Positions 42,291 to 64,000 of a stretch of 64,000 nt of DNA are shown here, one piece after another. The first letter of the stretch is position 1. Each line of letters opens with the position of its first letter. The notes below the pieces were generated by a model. That model saw only the letters and a program-made list of their open reading frames with translations. It searched no databases and had not been told where the DNA came from. The stretch is from a virus, in the IMG/VR virus record IMGVR_UViG_3300037483_000793, positions 64,001-128,000 of that record. One strand, 5' to 3'. The position numbers were made by a program, and so were the translations under genes.

Positions 42291-43055
42291 CTAGCGGTGC
42301 TTGATCGCGAACTGCAGTGCTTCGCGGCCGAGCCTGAACGCGAGCGCCTTGCCGCTCGGGCCAAGTCGATACGGGCTCTGCGCAGCCCGCTTGGCGATGC
42401 GTAGCGCGAACCATGAAGCGGCGACGACGCCCACGACACCGAGCGCGCCGAGACCGATCTTGGCGCCCGTTGACATGCCGGTCGAGGCCATCGACGGCTG
42501 GACGCCGAGTGTCGCGAGCGCGGCAGCGATCTGTGGCGCGGCATCGCGTGCACCGTCAGCTGTGAAGTGGATCCCGTCGCCGCTCCGCTGCGCCATCTCG
42601 GTCAGCGGCCGGATGTCGAGCGTGCGGTCGATGCCGTACACGCCTCGGATCGTGTCCAGCATGAGCGGTGCAGCGGTCTCGAACTTGATGGCGTCGTACG
42701 ACGGCGGTCCGAGCGCGACAACTTCGGCGTGCGCGAGCTTGTACGCGTCACGGATTGCTTTCATGGCCGTCGCGGTCCGTGCAAGTTCGGGCGTCGTCAT
42801 GCCGCGATTGATGTCGTTGGTGCCAAGAAAGACGATGACTTTGGTCGGCTTGAACTGCGAGATGTCCGACGCGATTTGCGACAACCCGTTCTCGCCCTGA
42901 ATGAAGCTGATCGCCGAGCGGCCAACGCGCGCATTGATGTGGACGTCCTGTGCGCCAGCACCGTGCAGGAGCTGACCGAGAACGCCGCCCGGCGAGAACG
43001 CGCTCGCCGACAAGCTGTCACCGAGAATCAGAATACGCTCGCCGCGGATGTTCAT
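42291..43055 (-). CDS. SGNH/GDSL hydrolase with C-terminal membrane anchor
   Basis: ILILGDSLS, VGRS, FLGTND, DGIHF; C-terminal GLGALGVVGVVAASWFALR then basic tail. Confidence 0.85.
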   Translation of the reverse strand: MNIRGERILILGDSLSASAFSPGGVLGQLLHGAGAQDVHINARVGRSAISFIQGENGLSQIASDISQFKPTKVIVFLGTNDINRGMTTPELARTATAMKAIRDAYKLAHAEVVALGPPSYDAIKFETAAPLMLDTIRGVYGIDRTLDIRPLTEMAQRSGDGIHFTADGARDAAPQIAAALATLGVQPSMASTGMSTGAKIGLGALGVVGVVAASWFALRIAKRAAQSPYRLGPSGKALAFRLGREALQFAIKHR

Positions 43056-43993
43056 CGGCGCTTCCGCGTGTAGCCGACGAGTGGGCCGCGCGTCGCCAAG
43101 TTCTTGGCAACGTGGAGCGCGAGCCAACCCGCACCGACCAAGCCGCCAATCGCGGCAATCACCGCGAAGAACCTTTTGACGCTACTGTCAGCGTCGGCGG
43201 ATTCGGATGCCGTCGTCGAGCAGATCGGCATGTTCGGCGACCAGTTCGGAGCTGCTTCATTCGACACGGCCGCGATACCGCGCGCGAGCAGCGTCATGCC
43301 TTGTGGCGACGTCGGCTGCACGCCGTACTGGCGCATGAGAAACGTGCGGCGGTGATCGACACCCGGCAGCGGACCGACCCAGTAGTTGCCGCGCGTCGCA
43401 GTACTCTGCAGTGTCGCGGCCGGGTTGGGGTACGCGTTGCGGTTGAACAGATTAGATTGATCGTCTGCGAGCCGCGCGAAATTGTGGCTGCGGCCTGACG
43501 CGATGAGGTCTCCGAGTAGGAGCGTTAGCACGCTCGGATCGAGACGCGTCGAGGCCCAACGACGATACGGCGCCGTCGTGACACCGGTCGGTCCATGGAT
43601 CGGACCATAGAAGCCGTAGTTCGGATGGCCTACGCCCTGGTTGTAGAGCAGGACGTTGAGCACCGACTTGCCGCGGAGCTTGGCGCGGTTGACGGCCGCT
43701 TCACCGACAGCGACGCGTTCTTCGATCGTGCCGTTGCCGATCTCGGACTGCATGTAGCGGGCAAGCGTGTAGGCTTCGAGTGAGAGCTTGCCACTGAACA
43801 GTCCCGGCGCGAGCTGCTTGAGCCGCGTCTCGGCGTTCGCGCGCATGCTCTCTGGCGAGCACGCGATGTTGCCCTGGTCGTTGAGCGCACAGCCCGAGAA
43901 CACGGTGACCTGCGCGCCCCGCGCGAGCGGCGCAAGCATGGCGTGCCATGGCGGATAGCACGTCGTCGGCGTGTCCAACATCGGAGTCGCCAC
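43052..43993 (-). CDS. SleB-like (Hydrolase_2) cell-wall hydrolase with C-terminal membrane anchor
   Basis: LARYMQSEIG...ERVAVGEAAVNRA; TM FFAVIAAIGGLVGAGWLAL; tail LVGYTRKRR. Confidence 0.7.
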   Translation of the reverse strand: MATPMLDTPTTCYPPWHAMLAPLARGAQVTVFSGCALNDQGNIACSPESMRANAETRLKQLAPGLFSGKLSLEAYTLARYMQSEIGNGTIEERVAVGEAAVNRAKLRGKSVLNVLLYNQGVGHPNYGFYGPIHGPTGVTTAPYRRWASTRLDPSVLTLLLGDLIASGRSHNFARLADDQSNLFNRNAYPNPAATLQSTATRGNYWVGPLPGVDHRRTFLMRQYGVQPTSPQGMTLLARGIAAVSNEAAPNWSPNMPICSTTASESADADSSVKRFFAVIAAIGGLVGAGWLALHVAKNLATRGPLVGYTRKRR

Positions 43994-50147: not shown

Positions 50148-50879
50148 CTAGTGTCGCTTGAGCAGGACCGCTGTGACCAGGCCGAGCACGACTGCGCTGC
50201 CAGTCGCAGCAGCGATCACGATCTTCGTCTTGCGTGACATCGGGGGCTTCGAGACGGCAATCGGCCTTGGCGCAACCGGCGTCACGTCGCCCGACTTGAG
50301 CGCGGTGATCATGTTCTCGATCGCCGCTTTGACGTCGTCGAGTGTCCCGAGCGTCGCGATCGCGATCGTCGGGTCCATCATGCGCGCGTTGTTGATGCGC
50401 GCGGTTACGTCGCTGTTGGGGACCTGTGCCGCGACCGTGCCACCTGCTGCGGCAGTTGCCTGCTGCAGCAGCGCCATCGTCCCGCCGTGGACGACCCACA
50501 ACCGGTTGTTGAAGTCGCTGTACGCGCCGGTCGAAGTGCCGACGTCGAACACGACATCAAAGCTGTGGAACGTGGTCACCATCCCAAGGAAGCGCTCGAA
50601 CACCGCGATCGCATCCTCGGCAGACATGCCTGCAGCACCGAATCCGGGCTGCATGTACATGTTCGGATCGTACATGTAGTGGTACCGCGACGTCTCCGCG
50701 TCGGGGTAGTGCTTGCCGATCACGCCCGAGTAGATGCGGCTCTGATCATAGCGCGCCGCGTGCACGGGAAACTCGGCGGCGTAGAAGTCGGGGAAGCCGT
50801 AGCGGTACGGACCCTTTCCCCACTTCGTGACCAGCTCGTTGGCGCTCTCGCCGAAGGCGCCGTAGTGCGCGATCAGCAC
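50148..50879 (-). CDS. Tail-anchored membrane protein with AFG leader (putative virion)
   Basis: MLIAHYGAFG; C-terminal TM IVIAAATGSAVVLGLVTAVLL-KRH. Confidence 0.65.
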   Translation of the reverse strand: MLIAHYGAFGESANELVTKWGKGPYRYGFPDFYAAEFPVHAARYDQSRIYSGVIGKHYPDAETSRYHYMYDPNMYMQPGFGAAGMSAEDAIAVFERFLGMVTTFHSFDVVFDVGTSTGAYSDFNNRLWVVHGGTMALLQQATAAAGGTVAAQVPNSDVTARINNARMMDPTIAIATLGTLDDVKAAIENMITALKSGDVTPVAPRPIAVSKPPMSRKTKIVIAAATGSAVVLGLVTAVLLKRH

Positions 50880-50882
50880 GGG

Positions 50883-51755
50883 TTACCGGCTCCGCGAACG
50901 GCGCCGACCGAGTGCGGGCGACGTGTAGAGGAAGCCGGGCTTGTGCTTGCCCGCCGCGACCGCACCGACGGTGGTGAGGCCGACCATCGCAGCGGCGCCC
51001 ATGACGATTGGCGCCCACTTGCTGCGCTGTTCGCCTGCCTTGGGCACGACGAACGGAATCGTCGAGACGTCGAGCTGCGTCTGGATCGGAACGTTGCCGC
51101 GCTCGTTGAATTGCGACAACAGCGCCGGGAAGTGATCAGCGACGTCGTTGAGGTAGTCGGCGATCTCCGTCGAATACTTGGCGTAGATGTCCGTGCGTGT
51201 CGGCGACACGAATGCGAGGGCGATGCCCGGGTTCGGGAACTTCTTGAGCATGCCCGCGAGTGTCAGCGCGAGTACCGTGAACTGCATCGTCGAAGCACCG
51301 ACCACACCGTCGTAGCCGCTCTGCGCGCCAACTGGGCTCATGAGGTTCGAGGGCACCGTGAAGATCTGCTCGGATGTCGATCCGTCGCCGGACGGCATCT
51401 GACCTTTCATCTGCCGCCCCGCGAGACCGTTGGTCGGGATGAGGTCGATCACGCGGTCGGCAGCGCGCTGCATGTTGCGAATCGGTGCCTTGCCGCTCTC
51501 GCCAGCCTTGTTGAGCACACACTGCGGACGGTTCGCGTTGTCCTTGGTGCAGTACACGAGCCCGTCATCGGACTTGTACGTGGTGCCCGCACCAGCTGCC
51601 TGGAACACGGAAAAGTCCGATACTGCTGCGCCAAAACCGTAGCCGGTGTTGACCCCGCCGCGCATGCGGGCACGGTCCTGCGCGACCTGGATAAGAACAA
51701 GCGCGGAGGGCGCTTGCGACTGCCCAAATCCGTTGCCGTAGGAGCTGACGATCAT
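50883..51755 (-). CDS. Tail-anchored protein with GFG leader and PG-binding-like DGVVG..T motif
   Basis: MIVSSYGNGFG; YDGVVGAST; TM; tail ALGRRRSRSR. Confidence 0.6.
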   Translation of the reverse strand: MIVSSYGNGFGQSQAPSALVLIQVAQDRARMRGGVNTGYGFGAAVSDFSVFQAAGAGTTYKSDDGLVYCTKDNANRPQCVLNKAGESGKAPIRNMQRAADRVIDLIPTNGLAGRQMKGQMPSGDGSTSEQIFTVPSNLMSPVGAQSGYDGVVGASTMQFTVLALTLAGMLKKFPNPGIALAFVSPTRTDIYAKYSTEIADYLNDVADHFPALLSQFNERGNVPIQTQLDVSTIPFVVPKAGEQRSKWAPIVMGAAAMVGLTTVGAVAAGKHKPGFLYTSPALGRRRSRSR

Positions 51756-51795
51756 GTGGTTAGCCTACCACAGAAGCGATCCCAGCAGCGATCGA

Positions 51796-52500
51796 CTACC
51801 GGCGCCGACGACGGCGCGCGAGGTTCGACTTCGACTTCGCTTTCTTGGGCGCGGGCTCACGCAGCACGGCATAACCGACGGCACCGACGACGACGACACC
51901 GGCAACGCCAGCGGTGACCCAGACCCACGTCGGGACCTTGCCCGATGTCGCGATCGGCATGAGCGACGCCGCGGCTGGGTTTGCGCCCGGCATCATGGTG
52001 GGCTGGATCGCTGCGGTCGTCGTTCCTCGTGGCGCCGTCACCATCAGCGACGGTGAAAGCGAAACCGACGTAGGCGGCGTGACGACGGCAATCGGCGTGC
52101 TGGACGGAACCGGCGTCGGCGTCGAGGTCGCAACAGGGAACTGCGATCGCGGCGCGGTCACACCGCCGAGAAACGCTTGCAGCCCGTCCTGAAGGATCTG
52201 TGCGTTCGATGCGATTGCCTCCTTCGTCGAGCCCGGTGACGCGAGCAGCGCTGCCGCCGCGGCCGCGCGTGCGGCCGTGACTGTCTGCGCCCCGATGAAG
52301 CCGTCGACGGTGAGCTGCCCCGTGTACGCAGACAGCCCGAGCTTGGCGTACTGGTTCAGCGTGCCCTGCAGCTGCTGAAGCAGCGCGTGGTTTGCTGCGC
52401 CGATCGCGTAGCAGATGCTGCTGTTGCAGTTGAAGTCGGTGCCTTGCGAGAGCACGCGAGCGGCGCCAAACGCGCCACTGATCGTTGTCGTGAACAGCAC
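51796..52500 (-). CDS. Peptidoglycan-binding-domain protein, Pro/Thr linker, C-terminal TM
   Basis: LTVDGFIGAQTVTA; FNCNSSICYA; tail NLARRRRRR. Confidence 0.75.
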   Translation of the reverse strand: MLFTTTISGAFGAARVLSQGTDFNCNSSICYAIGAANHALLQQLQGTLNQYAKLGLSAYTGQLTVDGFIGAQTVTAARAAAAAALLASPGSTKEAIASNAQILQDGLQAFLGGVTAPRSQFPVATSTPTPVPSSTPIAVVTPPTSVSLSPSLMVTAPRGTTTAAIQPTMMPGANPAAASLMPIATSGKVPTWVWVTAGVAGVVVVGAVGYAVLREPAPKKAKSKSNLARRRRRR

Positions 52501-52503
52501 GGG

Positions 52504-53082
52504 CTAACCCCGTGCCTTGCGACGGTAGACGACGTAGCCGACGCCGCCGACACCGAGCACGGCCACGACGCCGCCAAGGATCCACCACAGCGTCTTGGAC
52601 TTGACCTTCGGCAGCGCCGCGGCAGCAGGTGACATGCCCGGGATCTGCACAGGTCCGATCGTGGTCGTCTGGTGCACGACTGGCGGCGGCTGGTACGCGA
52701 CAGCAGTACCGGACGGCGACGGCCGCATGCCTCCAGCCTGTTGTACGACGGCGAGGTTCTGAAGCAGGTCGATCAGCATGCCCGCGTTTGCGGCGACGGC
52801 TTCTTTCGTCGATGGCGCCGTCGCGAGACCCAGCCTCTTGATCGCTTGCAGCGCCGTTACCGTAGCGGCGCCGATGAAGCCATCGACGGTGAGCGGCTTG
52901 AAGCCTGCAGCACCGGAGAAGACGTTCGTCTTCATCTGCAGCTGCTTGAACAACGCGTCGTTCGTCGGGCCGATCGCGTAGCAGATGGCGTTGTTGCAGT
53001 TGAAGTCCTTGCCCTGTGTCAGCCCGGCGGCGCTGAAGCCGTAGCCGAAGCCGTTACCGCCGCTGTGAGCCTGAATAAGCAT
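52504..53082 (-). CDS. Peptidoglycan-binding-domain protein (paralog of 51796-52500), C-terminal TM
   Basis: LTVDGFIGAATVTA; FNCNNAICYA; GGAG RBS before ATG 53082. Confidence 0.75.
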   Translation of the reverse strand: MLIQAHSGGNGFGYGFSAAGLTQGKDFNCNNAICYAIGPTNDALFKQLQMKTNVFSGAAGFKPLTVDGFIGAATVTALQAIKRLGLATAPSTKEAVAANAGMLIDLLQNLAVVQQAGGMRPSPSGTAVAYQPPPVVHQTTTIGPVQIPGMSPAAAALPKVKSKTLWWILGGVVAVLGVGGVGYVVYRRKARG

Positions 53083-55249: not shown

Positions 55250-56257
55250 ATGACTCAGATCAATCCCCGTTCGTTCGCGGACGCCAAACAGCTCGGCGAT
55301 TCCACCTATGAACTGATCCTGACGAACTGGGGCAACTTCGGCAGTGCGCGCGATCCGAACAACGCCTCCGAGCAGTATCCGCCGATCAAGAGCACTCCGG
55401 CGCCGACACCGCCGGGACCGCTCGCGTTGCCGAACGGCGCAATTCCGATCGTCGGCGAGTGGCTACTGCCGCCGCTTCCCAGCGTCTTCGCGATCGCGAT
55501 TGCACCGCGCAGCGATCTCGATCGTTGCATCTTGAACTTTCCAGCGCTGCCGCAATTTCCAGCGGTCGACACACCAGAGCCGTACGGGCCACGCGGGCTC
55601 ACCGGCAAGAGCATTACGATCGCTGAAGGTTTCGTAAACTACGGCGGCATCCTGGAGACCGAACAGTTTCTGAGCGTGAATGCGCCGTTGATCGGTCAAA
55701 TCAACGGGCCGATCCTCGTTCGTGCTCACACGTTCGCGTGGTTCAAGGACGGTTACACACCGCTCGATCCAGCTGGGACGCAGCGCTTCGGTACTGCCCT
55801 CAACGAACCGTTCAGTACGTCAGGTGTGATCAGCAATTTTCAGGTGCCCGAGCTGCGCCTCTTGCTGTACTTGACCAGCAAGAGCGGGCTGCCGCCACAG
55901 AAGCGTGCGCCACTCCATCGCACCTTCAACATAACGCCAATCTACCCGGCAGCGGGTATCGTCGGCCCGTGGGTCGTACCGATCATGGGACGGCGTCATG
56001 TCGTGATCTCGGCGCGTAGCACCAGCGCCGGACCCGTCACGGTGAACGCAGGCGGTGTCATGAATAGCGAGTTCACCAACTTCGGAAGCACGGCAGACTT
56101 CTCGATGGATGAAGTGCCGCTCGGAACGGTCACGATCGCTGCAAACGGGGGCGGGGTCATCACCATCGACAACCCGGGTTGTCCGTTCCTGACGGTGCAG
56201 GCATCCGGCGGCGGCCTCTTCGATTTCATGACCGTCAACGTCGACGCATTCGACTAA
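55250..56257 (+). CDS. Beta-rich putative virion structural protein (alternative start 55184)
   Basis: Alternating beta-strand pattern, Pro-rich, 2 Cys; palindrome upstream. Confidence 0.5.
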   Translation: MTQINPRSFADAKQLGDSTYELILTNWGNFGSARDPNNASEQYPPIKSTPAPTPPGPLALPNGAIPIVGEWLLPPLPSVFAIAIAPRSDLDRCILNFPALPQFPAVDTPEPYGPRGLTGKSITIAEGFVNYGGILETEQFLSVNAPLIGQINGPILVRAHTFAWFKDGYTPLDPAGTQRFGTALNEPFSTSGVISNFQVPELRLLLYLTSKSGLPPQKRAPLHRTFNITPIYPAAGIVGPWVVPIMGRRHVVISARSTSAGPVTVNAGGVMNSEFTNFGSTADFSMDEVPLGTVTIAANGGGVITIDNPGCPFLTVQASGGGLFDFMTVNVDAFD

Positions 56258-56774: not shown

Positions 56775-57125
56775 TTACAGGTCCGACGACGACAGGATGT
56801 ACCAGGCGACGCCGTCCGAAACTACGTGCATGACGTCGTACTGGTCGGGTAGTGACTGCGTCGGCGCGCCGTCGATCGTGTCGACGCCTGTCGGGTTGAT
56901 CGTCACGGCGAAGGCAGCACTGATGTTCTTGATCCAGTACGCCTTGCCCTTGTTGTCGGCCGCGAGTGGCAGTGTCACCGTGGCGAGCGCATTGACGAGA
57001 ATGACACTGGCGGGTGCATCGACACCGGCAGCGAACGCAGCGGTCACCGTGATGACGCCGTAGTGCAAGTACGGTGCGTTCATCAGCGGATAGCGGTCGT
57101 CCCAGGTCTCCTGATTTTTGCTCAT
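56775..57125 (-). CDS. Spike/fibre-type beta domain protein
   Basis: VTLPLA..KGKAYWIKN...TIDG...QY..VSDG..WYI pattern common in virion fibres. Confidence 0.7.
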   Translation of the reverse strand: MSKNQETWDDRYPLMNAPYLHYGVITVTAAFAAGVDAPASVILVNALATVTLPLAADNKGKAYWIKNISAAFAVTINPTGVDTIDGAPTQSLPDQYDVMHVVSDGVAWYILSSSDL

Positions 57126-57136
57126 GGCGGTCTCCT

Positions 57137-57439
57137 TTACGGAACGGGCAGTGCCTCGGAAGCCGAGACGGAAAGTAGACCGCTGACCGCCGCGCCGACG
57201 GCGTAGAGGCCCTGCTTCGGTGCGAGCACGAACGCGTGCTGTTCGCCGGGAAACACACGGTACGACGCGGTTGTCGGCGCAGGGAACAGATCGGTCGTCG
57301 TCAAGCTGACGAAGATCAGCACAGGGCCGACGTTGTTGACGAGAACACGCAACGGCTTGGTGCTGGCCGCTTTCGCGATCGTCGTCGGCTGCGTGCCGAC
57401 GGCTTGGACGGTGTACGTCTCGAAGTTTGTGTTCTGCAT
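57137..57439 (-). CDS. Small beta-sandwich virion protein
   Basis: VLVNNVGPVLIFV...RVFPGEQHAFVL...LYAV. Confidence 0.55.
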   Translation of the reverse strand: MQNTNFETYTVQAVGTQPTTIAKAASTKPLRVLVNNVGPVLIFVSLTTTDLFPAPTTASYRVFPGEQHAFVLAPKQGLYAVGAAVSGLLSVSASEALPVP

Positions 57440-57456: not shown

Positions 57457-57993
57457 TTAGCGGACCTCGCTCGGGGGGCCGATGATGTCGAGGTAACCCT
57501 GGAAGTTGACCTCGATGCGCACGAACTGCACGTCGACGCGCTCGGGCTCGATGTTGGCGTCAAGGATCACGACCGCCGGGTAATCCTGCGTGTCGATCTG
57601 CACCTGGAAGCCCTCGCTGCGGACGATCGTGTAGGGCTCTTCGAGATCCCACGCGCCTGTGTTCTTCTGCAGCAGCTGGCTGACGAGCGTTGCGCTCTTG
57701 GTCAGGTTCTCGTTCTTCGCGAAATCGAGGATGCGCATACGCACCCGCTTCTCCAGCGTGGTCGGTTGCGGTTCGAGCACCGTTGGCGTTGAAAAGCCGT
57801 CGGGCGTGCCCTTGGCCGTCAGGCCGATCCGGACGCGGTGGATCTCGAACGGCTTGTCGACGTTGTGGAGAAACGACGCTTCGGGGAACACGACGCCCGA
57901 CAGGTTCGGACCGACGTCCAGCTCTGCGGCGACGTTGTACGGAATGCGAAACGTGATGTCCTTGCCCGCAAAAGCTACTGGCAGACGGCCCAT
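57457..57993 (-). CDS. Putative single-jelly-roll capsid-like protein
   Basis: 178 aa, all-beta pattern (FEIHRVRI, VRMRILD, LEEPYTIV..EGFQVQIDT, IEVNFQGY); GAGGAG RBS; heads a structural operon. Confidence 0.45.
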   Translation of the reverse strand: MGRLPVAFAGKDITFRIPYNVAAELDVGPNLSGVVFPEASFLHNVDKPFEIHRVRIGLTAKGTPDGFSTPTVLEPQPTTLEKRVRMRILDFAKNENLTKSATLVSQLLQKNTGAWDLEEPYTIVRSEGFQVQIDTQDYPAVVILDANIEPERVDVQFVRIEVNFQGYLDIIGPPSEVR

Positions 57994-58114
57994 GGGTGTT
58001 CTCCTCGAAGGTCGATCGCTGCTGCGACTGGTGTAGGGTCACCATCGCGCACGCACTGGATCTCCGCAAGGTTGTTCGCGTTTTTTCAGATACGAGCAGT
58101 GGTAAGTTCTACAA

Positions 58115-59475: not shown

Positions 59476-59886
59476 ATGGACCCGGCTCGGGCGCTCGTCA
59501 CATCGCCCACGATCCGTAACGACACGCCCGCCGCGCCAGACGACTGGGCGATGGTCGTGTTGATCAAAGGCGGTGGTGGTATTCCCATCATCGTCACGGT
59601 CGTCGGGCCGACGACCGGTGTCACGACGACGATTCCTGTCTCGGTGGTTCCGGTCGTTTTTTTAGCCGCGAATCCAGCACGGCTCGGCGCGACGATCGTC
59701 AATGACTCACCGAATCGGTTCCTCTACGTCAAGTTGGGTGCGGGTGTCGGACTCGCAAGTTACTCGGTGCGGATCGGGCCGCACAGTTACTATGAGTTGC
59801 CGTTCCCGGCATATACAGGCGTGATCGAAGGCGTCTGGAACGCTGTGACACCAGGAACATTCGCGACCGTCACCGAGTTGACGTAG
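59476..59886 (+). CDS. Small jelly-roll-type virion protein (N..R.GA.I.ND...YTG...TELT family)
   Basis: Paralogous to 61186-61743 and 61764-62138. Confidence 0.6.
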   Translation: MDPARALVTSPTIRNDTPAAPDDWAMVVLIKGGGGIPIIVTVVGPTTGVTTTIPVSVVPVVFLAANPARLGATIVNDSPNRFLYVKLGAGVGLASYSVRIGPHSYYELPFPAYTGVIEGVWNAVTPGTFATVTELT

Positions 59887-59894
59887 GATGAGGT

Positions 59895-60188
59895 ATGCCC
59901 GTTCAAGCCCTCATCCGTAAGCTGACCCGTGCGCAGATCGACAAGGTCGTCGCTGACTCCAAAGCGAAGCTCACCGTCCAGGATCAGAGCGGCGCAACGC
60001 TCGTCATCGTGACCGCTACGATGGACGGCGAGGGTAAGGATCCCGTCGCCAACCTCGCGCTGCAGAAGATCTGCGACATGGATGCTGCCGTTGTGCAGAA
60101 GGAGCGCGAGGAAGAGGCGGCCAAGATTGCGGCCGAGAAGCGGGCCAAGCTCGCTGCAGAAGCGGCGAAGGCCGCCAACAACGGCTAG
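59895..60188 (+). CDS. Hypothetical protein with Ala/Glu/Lys-rich helical tail
   Basis: GAGGT RBS. Confidence 0.55.
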   Translation: MPVQALIRKLTRAQIDKVVADSKAKLTVQDQSGATLVIVTATMDGEGKDPVANLALQKICDMDAAVVQKEREEEAAKIAAEKRAKLAAEAAKAANNG

Positions 60189-61102
60189 GCAACACGCCGA
60201 CGCTTCGGCGGTCTGCGCGACTTGGTCTTTTTCGTTTGTACCTTCGCACGCGCTTTCGCTGCTGCCTCGACAAGACTCGGCGGGTTCTCAGGCAACGGTT
60301 CCGGTGGCGGCGCTGGGGGTGCCGTGTTGAACTTCGCGAGCGCGATGATCTGTTGCACCATGACGATCAGTGGCTTGGGTGGATTTTCGGCGTCAAACCA
60401 GCCGACGCTTTCCCACATCGCGTCGATCGGTTGTGGTTCGCCGCCGACGTACTCGCAGGACATCACCAGCGTCAGGAAGTGCTGACCCGCTTTCTCGACA
60501 AACGTCGAGACGTATGGCGCGAACTTCGAGACCGCTATCCGACCGACGTCGAGACCGGTTGTGACCTTCACGGCACGCTGTACCGCGCTCTCGACGGACT
60601 CGCCGACTTCGAGTGCACCTTCGGGCAGCACATAGACGCCGCTCTTCTTGAGCTTGCCCATGAGGACGTTGCCCTCGTGGATCATGAGCGCTGTGACAGC
60701 GACGCGAACGACGGGCCTGTCGGTGGCGTCGATCTCGCCGATTTTGAAATCGGTCGATACCGGACACGCAGGATCGACTGGCCAGCGCCCCAATGCCCAC
60801 TTCTTGGCGTCGTTGCGATCGAAGAACGTCGCTAGCGGTTCCTGTGAATCGGGCGGCGCGAAGACCGCGGACACACGGCGACCGCCGATTGCCAGCTCGG
60901 GCGGTTTCGAGCCGATTGTCAAGTAGACTGGCTTGCCGTCTTTGCCCTGGTCAAGTACGAGCAGTGCCTCGTCACCCAGCTCGGCGCGCCGCGTCGAATA
61001 CGCCTCGGCCAACATCCGAACTGCCAGTGGCGGCAGCTTTTCAGCAGCGATTCGTTCAGGTGAATCGGCAGCGTGCGGACTGATGCGGATGATCGTCTTC
61101 AC
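60185..61102 (-). CDS. Protein with C-terminal degenerate Nudix domain
   Basis: VAVTALMIHEGNVLM...LPEGALEVGESVESAVQRAVKVTTGL. Confidence 0.7.
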   Translation of the reverse strand: MKTIIRISPHAADSPERIAAEKLPPLAVRMLAEAYSTRRAELGDEALLVLDQGKDGKPVYLTIGSKPPELAIGGRRVSAVFAPPDSQEPLATFFDRNDAKKWALGRWPVDPACPVSTDFKIGEIDATDRPVVRVAVTALMIHEGNVLMGKLKKSGVYVLPEGALEVGESVESAVQRAVKVTTGLDVGRIAVSKFAPYVSTFVEKAGQHFLTLVMSCEYVGGEPQPIDAMWESVGWFDAENPPKPLIVMVQQIIALAKFNTAPPAPPPEPLPENPPSLVEAAAKARAKVQTKKTKSRRPPKRRRVA

Positions 61103-61185
61103 GGACGGACCGTAACACGACACGAAGATGGCCCTGATCGGGTAGACTAGAGGTCGATCGCTGCTGCGATCGAGGAGCACCCAGG

Positions 61186-61743
61186 ATGTCGTTAACCAAC
61201 GCCTACACCGTTCTCTACGATTCAGCTGACGTCGAGACCGGTACAGCCACGAACCCGCTGCGTATCGACCCGACCGGTACGACAACGCAGCCTGTCAGCG
61301 GCACGGTAACGGCCAATCAGGGTACACCTGCAATCGTCGCGAACGCGTGGCCGATCCTGGTCACCGACGGCGTTGACACAGCCGAAGTCGTGAACGCCGC
61401 ACCGGGTGCAGGTGCGTTCGGTCTCGTGGTTCGCATTGCCGGTACGATTACGACGTCGATCGCGCAGCCCGCGACGTCGACGGTCACAAGTGTGGCCGTC
61501 GACGACACCGTTGATACGATTCTCGCTTCAAACGCGAACCGTCTCGGGGCGATTCTGTGGAACGATGGCCCCAACAACGCGTTCGCCAAGCTCGGTGCAG
61601 CCGCGACCACGGCGAGCTTCACGGTTCGTCTGGCGAACAAGAGTGAGTGGGAAATCCCGTTCCCTGTCTACACAGGAATCATCACGGGCATCTGCGCGGC
61701 GACGCAGACCGCGACCGTGCTCGCAACCGAGCTGACGCCGTAG
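61186..61743 (+). CDS. Virion protein: LRIDPTGTTTQPVS stalk plus small jelly-roll
   Basis: C-terminal NANRLGAILWND...YTG...TELT. Confidence 0.65.
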   Translation: MSLTNAYTVLYDSADVETGTATNPLRIDPTGTTTQPVSGTVTANQGTPAIVANAWPILVTDGVDTAEVVNAAPGAGAFGLVVRIAGTITTSIAQPATSTVTSVAVDDTVDTILASNANRLGAILWNDGPNNAFAKLGAAATTASFTVRLANKSEWEIPFPVYTGIITGICAATQTATVLATELTP

Positions 61744-62138: not shown

Positions 62139-62326
62139 GCGTACGCATCATCCTTCCGTCTTCGGGCAGCAGCCCCCCATCGGGCCCGCCTTTCCTCAAC
62201 GACCACGTGCTCACGGCAGACACGACCATCACCGCGGGCACCGCCCTCACGGTCAATCGCTACGTTGAAATCGCGGCGGGCGTGACGCTGCGTATCGAAG
62301 CAGATGCCGATCTGGAGATTTCATGA
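62135..62326 (+). CDS. Small beta-rich virion protein
   Basis: ATGA overlaps at both ends. Confidence 0.55.
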   Translation: MSVRIILPSSGSSPPSGPPFLNDHVLTADTTITAGTALTVNRYVEIAAGVTLRIEADADLEIS

Positions 62327-63522
62327 GCTACGTGACGCAGATGGAGGGTGCTGCACCTGCAACACCCGCTGCTGGCGAAGGCACCTGGTACATCGACACC
62401 AACGGAGAGCCCAAGTTCATCGACGACAACGGCGTCAATGTTTTCCTCGCGCCCAAGTGGAAGTACAACTGGGTGCGCAACGGCGGGATGTGGTTCGCGC
62501 AGCGGCAAGCGCCCGGCACGCTGACCACGTACAGCAACACGACTGGTCGGTCATGCGGAGCGGATGGGTGGTGCATCACCAACGAGAACGCGAGCGTTCA
62601 ATACCAACGCACTGACACGATCACGGCGCCCGAGACCGGGTTGGTCGCGCGCTATTACGGCAAGTTCACCAAGATCACGTCGGCGGGCAAGCTAGTCGTC
62701 TCGCAAGTTATCGAGGGCCTCGACACCGCGAACCTGCGCGGCAGCACGGTGCGCGTTCAGGTGAAGATGAAGAGCATCGTCAATGACCTGACGGTGCGTC
62801 TGGGGCTCGCGTATCTGACCACCGGCACGCCAGACACCGGCATGCCAGCGGTGTTCGTCACTGCGTTTGGTGCCAACACCGTCGATCCGACACTGGGCAC
62901 AAACCTTTCGTACATCGCGCCCAAGGCCGGTGTGAATGCCGATGGCGGAACCGTCGATGGCAACTGCGTCGACTGCGCACTCACCACAACGACATGGACT
63001 CGCTACGGTGCGGTGTTCGATGTGCCGTCGGGCGCGCGCAACCTCGTGCTCTTGATTTTCTCCGACAGCCAGCTCGCTACCACCAACGGCATCGCGATGT
63101 CCGAGGCCACCTTGACCGATGGCCAAGCGATCCAAGACTGGGCGCCGCAGGCGTATCAACAAGAGCTGGCCCGTGTGCAGCGCTTCTACGCCAAGAGCTT
63201 CGACATCGACACGCTGCCCGCACAGAACGTCGGCATCGCCGGATCGGTTCGTGGACACGTGAACGTCGCGGGTGCGACCGCGGGTCAGGTCATGGGCGCT
63301 CGGTTTCCAGTTGCGATGCGCATCGCACCGACAACAGTTACGTTCTTCAACCCGAGCGCGGCCAACGCCTTTGTTCGCAATACGACAGCGGGAACCGACG
63401 CCACCGCAACCAGCTTCGCAAATGCTGCGGAGCAAGCGATGGACATCACGTTCACCGGCATCGCAGCGTGGGCAGTCGGCGCCGCAACCGCCGTTCATTA
63501 CACGGCCGACGCCGAGATCTAA
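62323..63522 (+). CDS. Fibre/receptor-binding protein with carbohydrate-binding-like beta domain
   Basis: NWVRNGGMWFAQR...DGW...TTTWTRY...QQELARVQRFY pattern of phage fibre proteins. Confidence 0.7.
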   Translation: MSYVTQMEGAAPATPAAGEGTWYIDTNGEPKFIDDNGVNVFLAPKWKYNWVRNGGMWFAQRQAPGTLTTYSNTTGRSCGADGWCITNENASVQYQRTDTITAPETGLVARYYGKFTKITSAGKLVVSQVIEGLDTANLRGSTVRVQVKMKSIVNDLTVRLGLAYLTTGTPDTGMPAVFVTAFGANTVDPTLGTNLSYIAPKAGVNADGGTVDGNCVDCALTTTTWTRYGAVFDVPSGARNLVLLIFSDSQLATTNGIAMSEATLTDGQAIQDWAPQAYQQELARVQRFYAKSFDIDTLPAQNVGIAGSVRGHVNVAGATAGQVMGARFPVAMRIAPTTVTFFNPSAANAFVRNTTAGTDATATSFANAAEQAMDITFTGIAAWAVGAATAVHYTADAEI

Positions 63523-63524
63523 AG

Positions 63525-64000
63525 ATGCAGTCGTTCAGGTTCAGGCAGCCGCCCGGAGCGAAGCCTGGGGCGACGCATCGCTACGTCGAGCGTAACCGCG
63601 GGGTGAGTGACCTCGCGACGCTGTCTCAACCGCCAACGCTCTTGCCGTTCGCGCAGGAAGACAGCGGCGCGCGCTACGCGCTGTCACGTGGCAGCTACTA
63701 CAACTACCTCCGCAACTCGGGGTTCTGGTCCACGCAAGTGCGGTCACTCAACAGCACCGCCGGTCTCGGCTTTACGATCCCAGTCAACGAACGCGTGTTG
63801 ACCTACGACGGCTGGTCCATGTGCTCGTCAGATAACGGAGTGAACCAAACCTTCCTCGAAGGGTTAGTGTCACGACAGCCGCTGTACCGATCGCCGTATT
63901 ACTGGGGCGCGTTCGGTATCGACGGCGGTGGTCGCGCGATGGTCTCTCAGGTCATCGAGGCGCAAGACGTGTTCGCATTGCGCGGCAGGATCGTCCGCGC
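63525..64000 (+). CDS. Paralog of the 62323 fibre protein (runs off window end)
   Basis: YNYLRNSGFWSTQ, DGWSM, VSQVIEAQDVFALRG match the upstream gene; open to the window end. Confidence 0.7.
   Translation, partial: MQSFRFRQPPGAKPGATHRYVERNRGVSDLATLSQPPTLLPFAQEDSGARYALSRGSYYNYLRNSGFWSTQVRSLNSTAGLGFTIPVNERVLTYDGWSMCSSDNGVNQTFLEGLVSRQPLYRSPYYWGAFGIDGGGRAMVSQVIEAQDVFALRGRIVR

Follow-up and report, generated by a model that had tools for sequence, protein, structure and literature searches.

A candidate single jelly-roll shell protein in an undescribed lineage of large, putatively tailless bacterial viruses

We propose that gene g234, located in the stretch of viral DNA analyzed here (the window: 64,000 nucleotides, bases 64001-128000 of a 195,792-bp viral record, 62% G+C), probably encodes a single jelly-roll shell protein, i.e., a small capsid or second capsomer protein, or else a penton. 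The gene would belong to an undescribed lineage of tailless bacterial dsDNA viruses with genomes of ~100-220 kb. The most economical virion for this lineage would be a tailless icosahedron with a jelly-roll shell over a membrane, in which another gene, g254, encodes the main capsomer protein. We hold these two proposals as one, with modest confidence. It is important to emphasize that we infer the capsid role of g234, the internal membrane and the mode of packaging for a lineage that is known here from its genes alone. The first-pass annotation of the window had suggested a larger, undescribed, membrane-containing lineage, and had named beforehand two outcomes that would count against it: a fold other than a jelly roll, and an HK97 capsid and terminase elsewhere in the genome. 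The results on both points, given below, support its suggestion, with the membrane still conjectural.

The 195.8-kb genome (G000) has 351 genes by our codon-based gene calling, as distinct from a curated annotation. Its first 177 bp recur at its end with three mismatches, which suggests a complete genome that is circular or terminally redundant; CheckV estimates its completeness at 90%. In IMG/VR, eleven contigs carry a g234 homologue, and we took three relatives in full (G003, G004 and G005), of which G003 (137,914 bp) has direct terminal repeats and is rated 100% complete. Another relative, G002, is 221 kb long. The core genes comprise a replication group (an SF3-like helicase, g006, an SNF2 helicase, an exonuclease, an AAA_24 protein and polymerase A) and a virion block (g205, g206, g224, g233, g234, g254, g263, g273-g275, g277 and g307). 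In addition, a 61-kb block within a 4.7-Mb record labelled Gemmatimonadota (L014 with L017-L019) has ~20 genes, virion and other, in common with the 195.8-kb virus. We rejected the interpretation of this block as a Gemmatimonadota prophage in favor of a viral contig scaffolded into a MAG; the block is flanked by runs of exactly 100 N, and therefore proves neither integration nor host.

Table 1. Positions of the features discussed. Numbers are window positions, except where an L label precedes them.
Feature	Position	Strand	Description
g013	L001:11730-13454	+	574-aa HerA/DUF87 ATPase with C-terminal winged-helix region; outside the window
g205	43052..43993	-	C-terminal membrane anchor and basic tail; 49% identical homologues in G004 and G005
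g230	55250..56257	+	335 aa; candidate vertex or spike protein
g232	56775..57125	-	116 aa; third gene of the operon, 11-nt gap after g233
g233	57137..57439	-	100 aa, beta-rich; second gene of the operon, 17-nt gap after g234
g234	57457..57993	-	178 aa, 19.9 kDa, pI 5.0, ATG start; predicted single jelly roll, candidate shell subunit
Shine-Dalgarno GAGGAG	58001..58006	-	7 nt before the ATG of g234; read from the sequence
19-bp repeat, copy 1	58009-58027		AGGTCGATCGCTGCTGCGA; overlaps the palindrome copy at 58014-58029
Near-palindrome	58014-58029		GATCGCTGCTGCGACT; 2-mismatch copy of GATCGC-N4-GCGATC, 20 nt upstream of the g234 start codon
19-bp repeat, copy 2	61151-61169		AGGTCGATCGCTGCTGCGA; upstream of g241
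Perfect palindrome	61156-61171		GATCGCTGCTGCGATC; overlaps repeat copy 2, upstream of g241
g241	61186..61743	+	185 aa, beta-rich; upstream repeat in common with g234
g249	L007:10533-12866	-	777 aa, VWA domain; highest codon score
g254	L007:15255-16004	-	249 aa; 7.3 kb past the window end; candidate main capsomer protein
g273	L009:7689-10070	-	793 aa; ~100-aa N-terminal domain, PQ-rich stretch, ~250 residues of charged coiled coil; conserved

Fold and gene context of g234

Relatives of g234 are common in metagenomic-scale data: a collection of 5.8 billion proteins contains 218 of them at E<=0.01, many on contigs of 45-241 kb, and an exhaustive search of 1.84 billion representatives gave 127 clusters at 50% identity. 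Because all 127 clusters measure 45-266 aa, the domain is never fused to another. The family conserves its termini (MGRLP at the N terminus, PPSExR at the C terminus) and ten internal positions that are invariant or nearly so, and each of the six related genomes or contigs examined has a homologue. Neither Pfam nor PHROG has a match for g234; the scans, which also covered nine neighbours, yielded only weak ones below the cut-offs, and tblastn found no match to g234 in 50,697 phage records. The family profiles of g234 and g254, compared with all PDB sequences, returned nothing significant.

The fold of g234 was predicted with AlphaFold2 (pLDDT 88, pTM 0.80). The model is all-beta, an eight-stranded jelly roll. 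The first-pass annotation had described a 178-aa frame with alternating beta strands, the pattern PYTI...FQVQI and a terminal FQGY; the frame is as described, the protein carries EPYTIVRSEGFQVQI and ends in FQGY, and nine strands and two short helices can be counted in the model. Foldseek searches of the PDB with the g234 and g254 models gave no match at E<=0.001, and searches of BFVD gave only weak, mixed jelly-roll matches. A structure search of the ESM Atlas retrieved viral clusters at TM 0.62-0.70, which are probably g234's own family.

With VIA-align, the g234 model meets a plateau of jelly rolls at Z 7.0-7.4. Those that match it over nearly the whole chain and at equal length are small capsid proteins, namely those of SPV1 (6oj0_T; Z 7.3, rmsd 3.9, 143 of 178 residues aligned), HCIV-1 (Z 7.1-7.3 over 131-133 residues, e.g., 6h9c_D at Z 7.1 with 133 aligned) and HHIV-2 (6h82_D; Z 7.3, 133 residues). 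SH1 (6qt9_C; Z 7.3) and the second jelly roll of PRD1 P3 (Z 7.4) score similarly, the EhV-201 capsid protein belongs to this plateau too, and P23-77 capsid protein is also among the structural neighbours. According to the tool's own notes, a Z below 8 may reflect a common arrangement only; since all g234 matches lie below 8, they set the fold class and are not decisive for a specific relationship. We regard the jelly-roll class itself as established on the predicted model. Regarding the fold as a point named beforehand, the outcome is a predicted jelly roll with SPV1, HCIV-1, HHIV-2, SH1, P23-77 and PRD1 as neighbours.

The same plateau contains proteins that are not viral: nucleoplasmin and HDT (Z 7.2-7.4) and PHM (Z 7.2). 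We therefore considered a non-structural jelly roll, e.g., a domain that binds sugars or acts as an enzyme, or a nucleoplasmin-like chaperone acting on basic DNA-binding proteins. PHM and the nucleoplasmin-type cores reach the best Z as well (7.2-7.4), and the genome encodes many very basic small proteins that a chaperone of this kind might serve. However, these matches span only 88-116 of the 178 residues, g234 has neither a catalytic motif nor a Pfam family, and its fixed synteny with g254 and a block of membrane proteins points to a role in the virion. We consider a non-structural function very improbable, and continue with g234 as a shell protein.

The gene heads an operon, as the first-pass annotation had claimed, because frames of 100 and 116 aa trail it on the same strand with gaps of 17 and 11 nt. 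The strong ribosome-binding site that had also been claimed is GAGGAG, at 58006-58001. By a per-codon score, which expresses how typical the codon usage is and is no direct measure of expression, g234 is second among 141 genes of at least 150 aa, and its usage is thus highly typical. Homologues of g233 with 36-42% identity lie directly downstream of the g234 homologue in G003, G004, G005 and the 61-kb contig. The domain of g232 is also found within a 1351-aa protein of one relative. Nearby, g230 weakly resembles a gene of the 61-kb contig, the one that comes next after the g233 homologue there (23% identity, E 3e-13), and its counterpart in relatives is a gene of roughly 250-320 aa that trails the g234-g233 pair.

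Upstream of g234, both sequence elements reported earlier are present: the near-palindrome, and a 19-bp direct repeat linking this region to that of g241. The repeat is exact, with two copies in the window and no more (58009 and 61151; 0 expected by chance), and its second copy lies 17 nt before the ATG with which the 185-aa frame at 61186 starts. Copies of GATCGC-N4-GCGATC with <=1 mismatch number 25 in the window, versus 1.3 expected, at sites spanning 2401-61171. A promoter scan found no sigma-70-like promoter near g234. The element before g234, combining repeat and palindrome, is a putative operator or late-promoter element. Each palindrome of this type contains two GATC sites, and a D12-class adenine methyltransferase is encoded in the same genome.

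Hallmarks of tailed phages and of DNA packaging

Scanning every protein of the 195.8-kb genome with 200 aa or more against the whole of Pfam identified DNA polymerase A fused to UDG, Prim-Pol, ThyX, helicases and ribonucleotide reductase, along with integrases, VWA proteins and BclA/C1q fibre domains, and no family of terminase, portal, capsid, sheath or tube. In one of these scans, 25 of the 28 families were among the matches listed, and the other three were weak. PHROG scans of 40 proteins of the genome attached the labels 'tail fiber' and 'collagen-like minor tail' to fibre genes near g234. Portal families were absent from the Pfam and PHROG matches, both for this genome and for the proteins specific to G003.

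Six-frame searches covered the 195.8-kb genome and relatives of 221, 138, 121, 102 and 95 kb. The terminase profiles PF03237 (Terminase_6N) and PF03354 (TerL_ATPase) had no match in five to six genomes, the portal profile PF04860 (Phage_portal) had none in five, with further portal families covered by the scans against the whole of Pfam, and the HK97 capsid profile PF05065 (Phage_capsid) had none in six; controls matched in all these searches. Thus, on the second point named beforehand, no HK97 capsid, terminase or portal was detected in the 195.8-kb genome or its relatives. This absence rests on sequence profiles, structures having been modelled for g234 and g254 only.

It might be supposed that the virus is a tailed phage after all, whose HK97 capsid, portal and terminase have diverged past the reach of profiles, and that g234 is a jelly roll of its decoration, tail or baseplate. 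Automatic taxonomy labels related protein clusters as Uroviricota (tailed phages), and the PHROG labels of the neighbouring genes fit this picture, although tailless viruses bear fibres too. The lineage also has genes in common with tailed phages, i.e., rII genes in G003 and VWA genes in the 195.8-kb genome, and the coiled-coil-rich g273, at 793 aa, could be a tape measure. On the other hand, terminase normally ranks with the best conserved genes of phages, and the Pfam searches for terminase, portal and capsid were empty where controls matched. Moreover, apart from an SF3-like helicase and a coiled-coil protein, the four full genomes have in common no unassigned protein of at least 400 aa, and none of the unassigned conserved proteins resembles a terminase or portal. 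We judge a diverged tailed phage improbable, and retain the reading of g234 as a shell protein of a tailless virus.

The rII genes belong to a group of features that are present in G003 and were not found in the 195.8-kb genome: proteins resembling rIIA and rIIB (PHROG E down to 1e-85), a UvrD-type helicase and an intein.

Several individual genes were considered as hallmarks and rejected. The HerA/DUF87 ATPase g013 matches a PHROG labelled 'terminase large subunit' (9e-19). Its gene lies ~108 kb upstream of g234, flanked by those for ribonucleotide reductase and DNA polymerase. An ATPase of this kind was found in G000 and G002 only, and not in G001, G003, G004, G005 or G006. Given this distribution, and because its closest solved relatives are HerA proteins, we rejected g013 as a core packaging ATPase; these HerA proteins presumably stem from anti-phage defence systems. 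The 569-aa g006 was rejected as a terminase, its nearest named clusters carrying DUF5906 and VapE-like helicase domains. The PQ-rich region and long charged coiled coils of g273 led us to reject it as a capsid or portal protein; it could be a scaffold or length-determining protein. Finally, g249 was rejected as a structural hallmark, since this VWA protein is also present in Ackermannviridae; with a protein found in that family and in other tailed phages, it has 33-34% identity across 96% of its length. VWA proteins (g249 and one of 647 aa at L009:13953-15896 (+)) are among the top four codon-typical genes of at least 150 aa.

ATPases of the kind that package DNA in membrane-containing jelly-roll viruses were sought with PF04665 (Pox_A32) and PF01580 (FtsK_SpoIIIE), neither of which had a match at E<=1 in five genomes. 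Consequently, these profiles, which a divergent ATPase may have escaped, do not show a specific link to Sphaerolipoviridae. The only P-loop ATPases common to all four full genomes are the SF3-like helicase and the AAA_24 protein.

A second jelly-roll candidate and the known virus groups

The first-pass annotation had remarked that no second capsid protein was visible in the window, and a candidate, judged by its predicted structure, was found just outside it. This gene, g254, is the most conserved of the virion block, at 61-71% identity across distant genomes. It has 438 relatives, of which the best 120 are 62-90% identical, and its variation is restricted to one loop. PHROG has no match for it. 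The g254 model, although of moderate quality (pLDDT 65, and below 50 for 55 residues), is again a jelly roll, with P23-77 VP17 (Z 6.9), SPV1 (Z 6.8) and the VP16-VP17 complex (Z 6.4) as best matches. Comparison of profiles gave no sign of kinship between g234 and g254 (hhalign probability 0.1%), and the prediction of a complex between them scored 0.00, which is evidence neither way.

The two genes are linked by their arrangement in the genome. In relatives, the g254 homologue encodes 235-249 aa and lies 0.2-3 kb from the g234 homologue, and in G005 the two are adjacent. G003, G004, G005 and the 61-kb contig all retain the order g255-g254 ... g234-g233, followed by a gene of ~300 aa. An NCBI contig of 150 kb carries homologues of both g234 and g254.

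The presence of g254 raises a further alternative, namely that the shell is built from g254 only, with g234 as an accessory virion protein, e.g., a cement or decoration protein, a vertex adaptor or the base of a fibre. Phage cement proteins match g234 at Z 5.5-5.9 and one tail-fibre domain does so at Z 6.8; the cement and turret jelly rolls of tailed viruses include those of Pam1 (Z 5.5), KHP40 (Z 5.9) and the HFTV1 turret (Z 5.7). An accessory role would also fit a gene that heads an operon of small beta proteins beside fibre-like genes, and that is less conserved than g254: identity of g234 between distant genomes is 38-40%, below that of g254 and no better than that of DNA polymerase. However, the proteins that g234 matches best over its whole length are equally sized and belong to capsomers (SPV1, 143 of 178 residues), the gene is universal in the lineage, and its codon usage is among the most typical in the genome. 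An accessory role therefore seems unlikely to us, though less so than the other alternatives, and we continue to prefer a shell subunit.

If both candidates are shell proteins, they can be compared with those of established groups. Portogloboviridae, represented by SPV1 (6oj0), have small single jelly-roll shell proteins of the same length as g234 (178 aa), and SPV1 is the best whole-length match of the g234 model (Z 7.3, 143 residues) and the second best of the g254 model (Z 6.8). SPV1 is thought to condense its DNA by basic proteins rather than to pump it. The present genome may be similar, although each point is indirect: profile searches found no packaging ATPase in it, and it encodes many membrane proteins and basic proteins that could condense DNA. 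However, SPV1 has no sequence similarity to the genome of g234 and g254, and the structural Z values stay below 8. SPV1 also has an archaeal host and a genome of ~20 kb, whereas the genome studied here is roughly tenfold larger, bacterial in style and equipped with its own replication apparatus.

The Helvetiavirae (Sphaerolipoviridae, Simuloviridae and Matsushitaviridae) resemble our virus in having two jelly-roll capsid proteins, for which the models offer candidates of 178 and 249 aa, and in their internal membrane, which is conjectural here. In that group, two kinds of capsid protein with upright jelly rolls make up pseudo-hexameric capsomers, and an FtsK/HerA- or A32-type packaging ATPase is encoded together with the capsid genes. 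The g254 model is closest to P23-77 VP17 (Z 6.9) and that of g234 is close to the small capsid proteins of HCIV-1 and HHIV-2 (Z 7.1-7.3); both models fall into the single jelly-roll class, with Z <8 to every member of the group. In contrast to the Helvetiavirae, no gene for an FtsK/A32-type ATPase was found beside the capsid candidates, the genome is 196 kb rather than 16-31 kb, and there is no sequence kinship to known capsid proteins in PDB, Pfam or PHROG. Moreover, g234 and g254 have no mutual similarity, unlike the capsid pair of sphaerolipoviruses.

Tectiliviricetes (PRD1, PM2), whose capsids are built of double jelly rolls, have a tailless architecture over an internal membrane, as we propose here, with membrane-anchored virion proteins and vertex fibres, and P3 of PRD1 resembles g234 in its second jelly roll (Z 7.4). 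However, no double jelly-roll Pfam family and no A32-like ATPase (PF04665) was found, and both candidates have the size of a single jelly roll, the g254 model consisting of one jelly roll with pLDDT <50 for 55 residues. The Caudoviricetes differ in that HK97 capsid, large terminase and portal are without a match here at the level of profiles. In outline, then, the 195.8-kb virus as read from its genes may most resemble SPV1 and the sphaerolipovirus group. The case for membership in either is weak, because neither sequence kinship nor an adjacent ATPase was found, the genome is tenfold larger and the setting is bacterial.

The virion block and a proposed architecture

Proteins with a hydrophobic segment are concentrated in the region g204-g278, where they account for 21 of 75, as opposed to 17 of 276 elsewhere (odds ratio 5.9, p 1e-6). 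Mostly, the segment in virion-block proteins is a single C-terminal anchor. An exception is g263, which has an N-terminal anchor; this protein is the likely source of a transglutaminase-like Pfam match. A glycine-zipper protein adjoins g254. The block also includes small, very basic proteins with pI 10.6-12.0 (g229 at pI 12.0, g256 at pI 10.6), and many arginine-rich tails. In g205, a SleB/CwlJ-like cell-wall hydrolase motif is a call made by eye, no family scan having named this gene. A GDSL lipase-like gene precedes g205 (window 42291-43993 (-)), and both are conserved in G004 and G005.

Based on these observations, we propose the following model. Bulk capsomers would be built by g254, and g234 would either join these capsomers or make the vertices. 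The shell would rest on an internal membrane that holds the many tail-anchored proteins of the virion block. Expression of g234 might be turned on late, via the GATCGC-N4-GCGATC site that precedes its start codon by 20 nt. The DNA may be condensed by small, very basic proteins, e.g., g229 and g256, instead of being pumped by a terminase.

A broader hypothesis, which we put forward tentatively as possible but doubtful, is that these viruses form a new high-rank group, i.e., giant tailless bacterial viruses with a large icosahedral shell of two unrelated single jelly-roll proteins, a lipid membrane, and 100-220 kb of DNA condensed by basic core proteins without a terminase or an FtsK/A32-type pump. 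If this were true, the lineage would fall outside Duplodnaviria, and perhaps outside the present jelly-roll realms as well, with g234 as one of its two hallmark genes. Word searches of the literature found no description of such a lineage, and in a 2026 review of jumbo phages a word search found the words jelly, tailless and non-tailed to be absent.

To our knowledge, all bacterial viruses described with genomes above ~100 kb are tailed phages that have an HK97 capsid. Among prokaryotic viruses, single jelly-roll capsids are known from genomes of ~16-31 kb. A jelly-roll shell around 100-220 kb in bacteria would mean that this architecture scales to jumbo genomes outside eukaryotes, and would supply a missing branch in the history of jelly-roll viruses. 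It would also prompt us to ask how this much DNA can be packaged when both known motors are missing. In practice, g234 and g254 would be marker genes for a group that current pipelines label as tailed phages.

Some additional observations concern duplicated genes and tRNAs. The beta-rich g241 is a paralogue of g238 (59476-59886; 39% identity, E 1.6e-18), both being small beta proteins (window 59476-61743 (+)). Further paralogue pairs are the membrane-anchored g222/g223 (39% identical; window 50148-53082 (-)), the fibre-like g244/g245 (35% identical; window 62323-64000 (+)) and, beyond the window, the arginine-tailed g260/g262 (42% identical). A tRNA-Met gene is followed 25 nt on by a tRNA-like gene to which ARAGORN assigns a two-base anticodon (ga) (genome 165980-166157, L010/L011).
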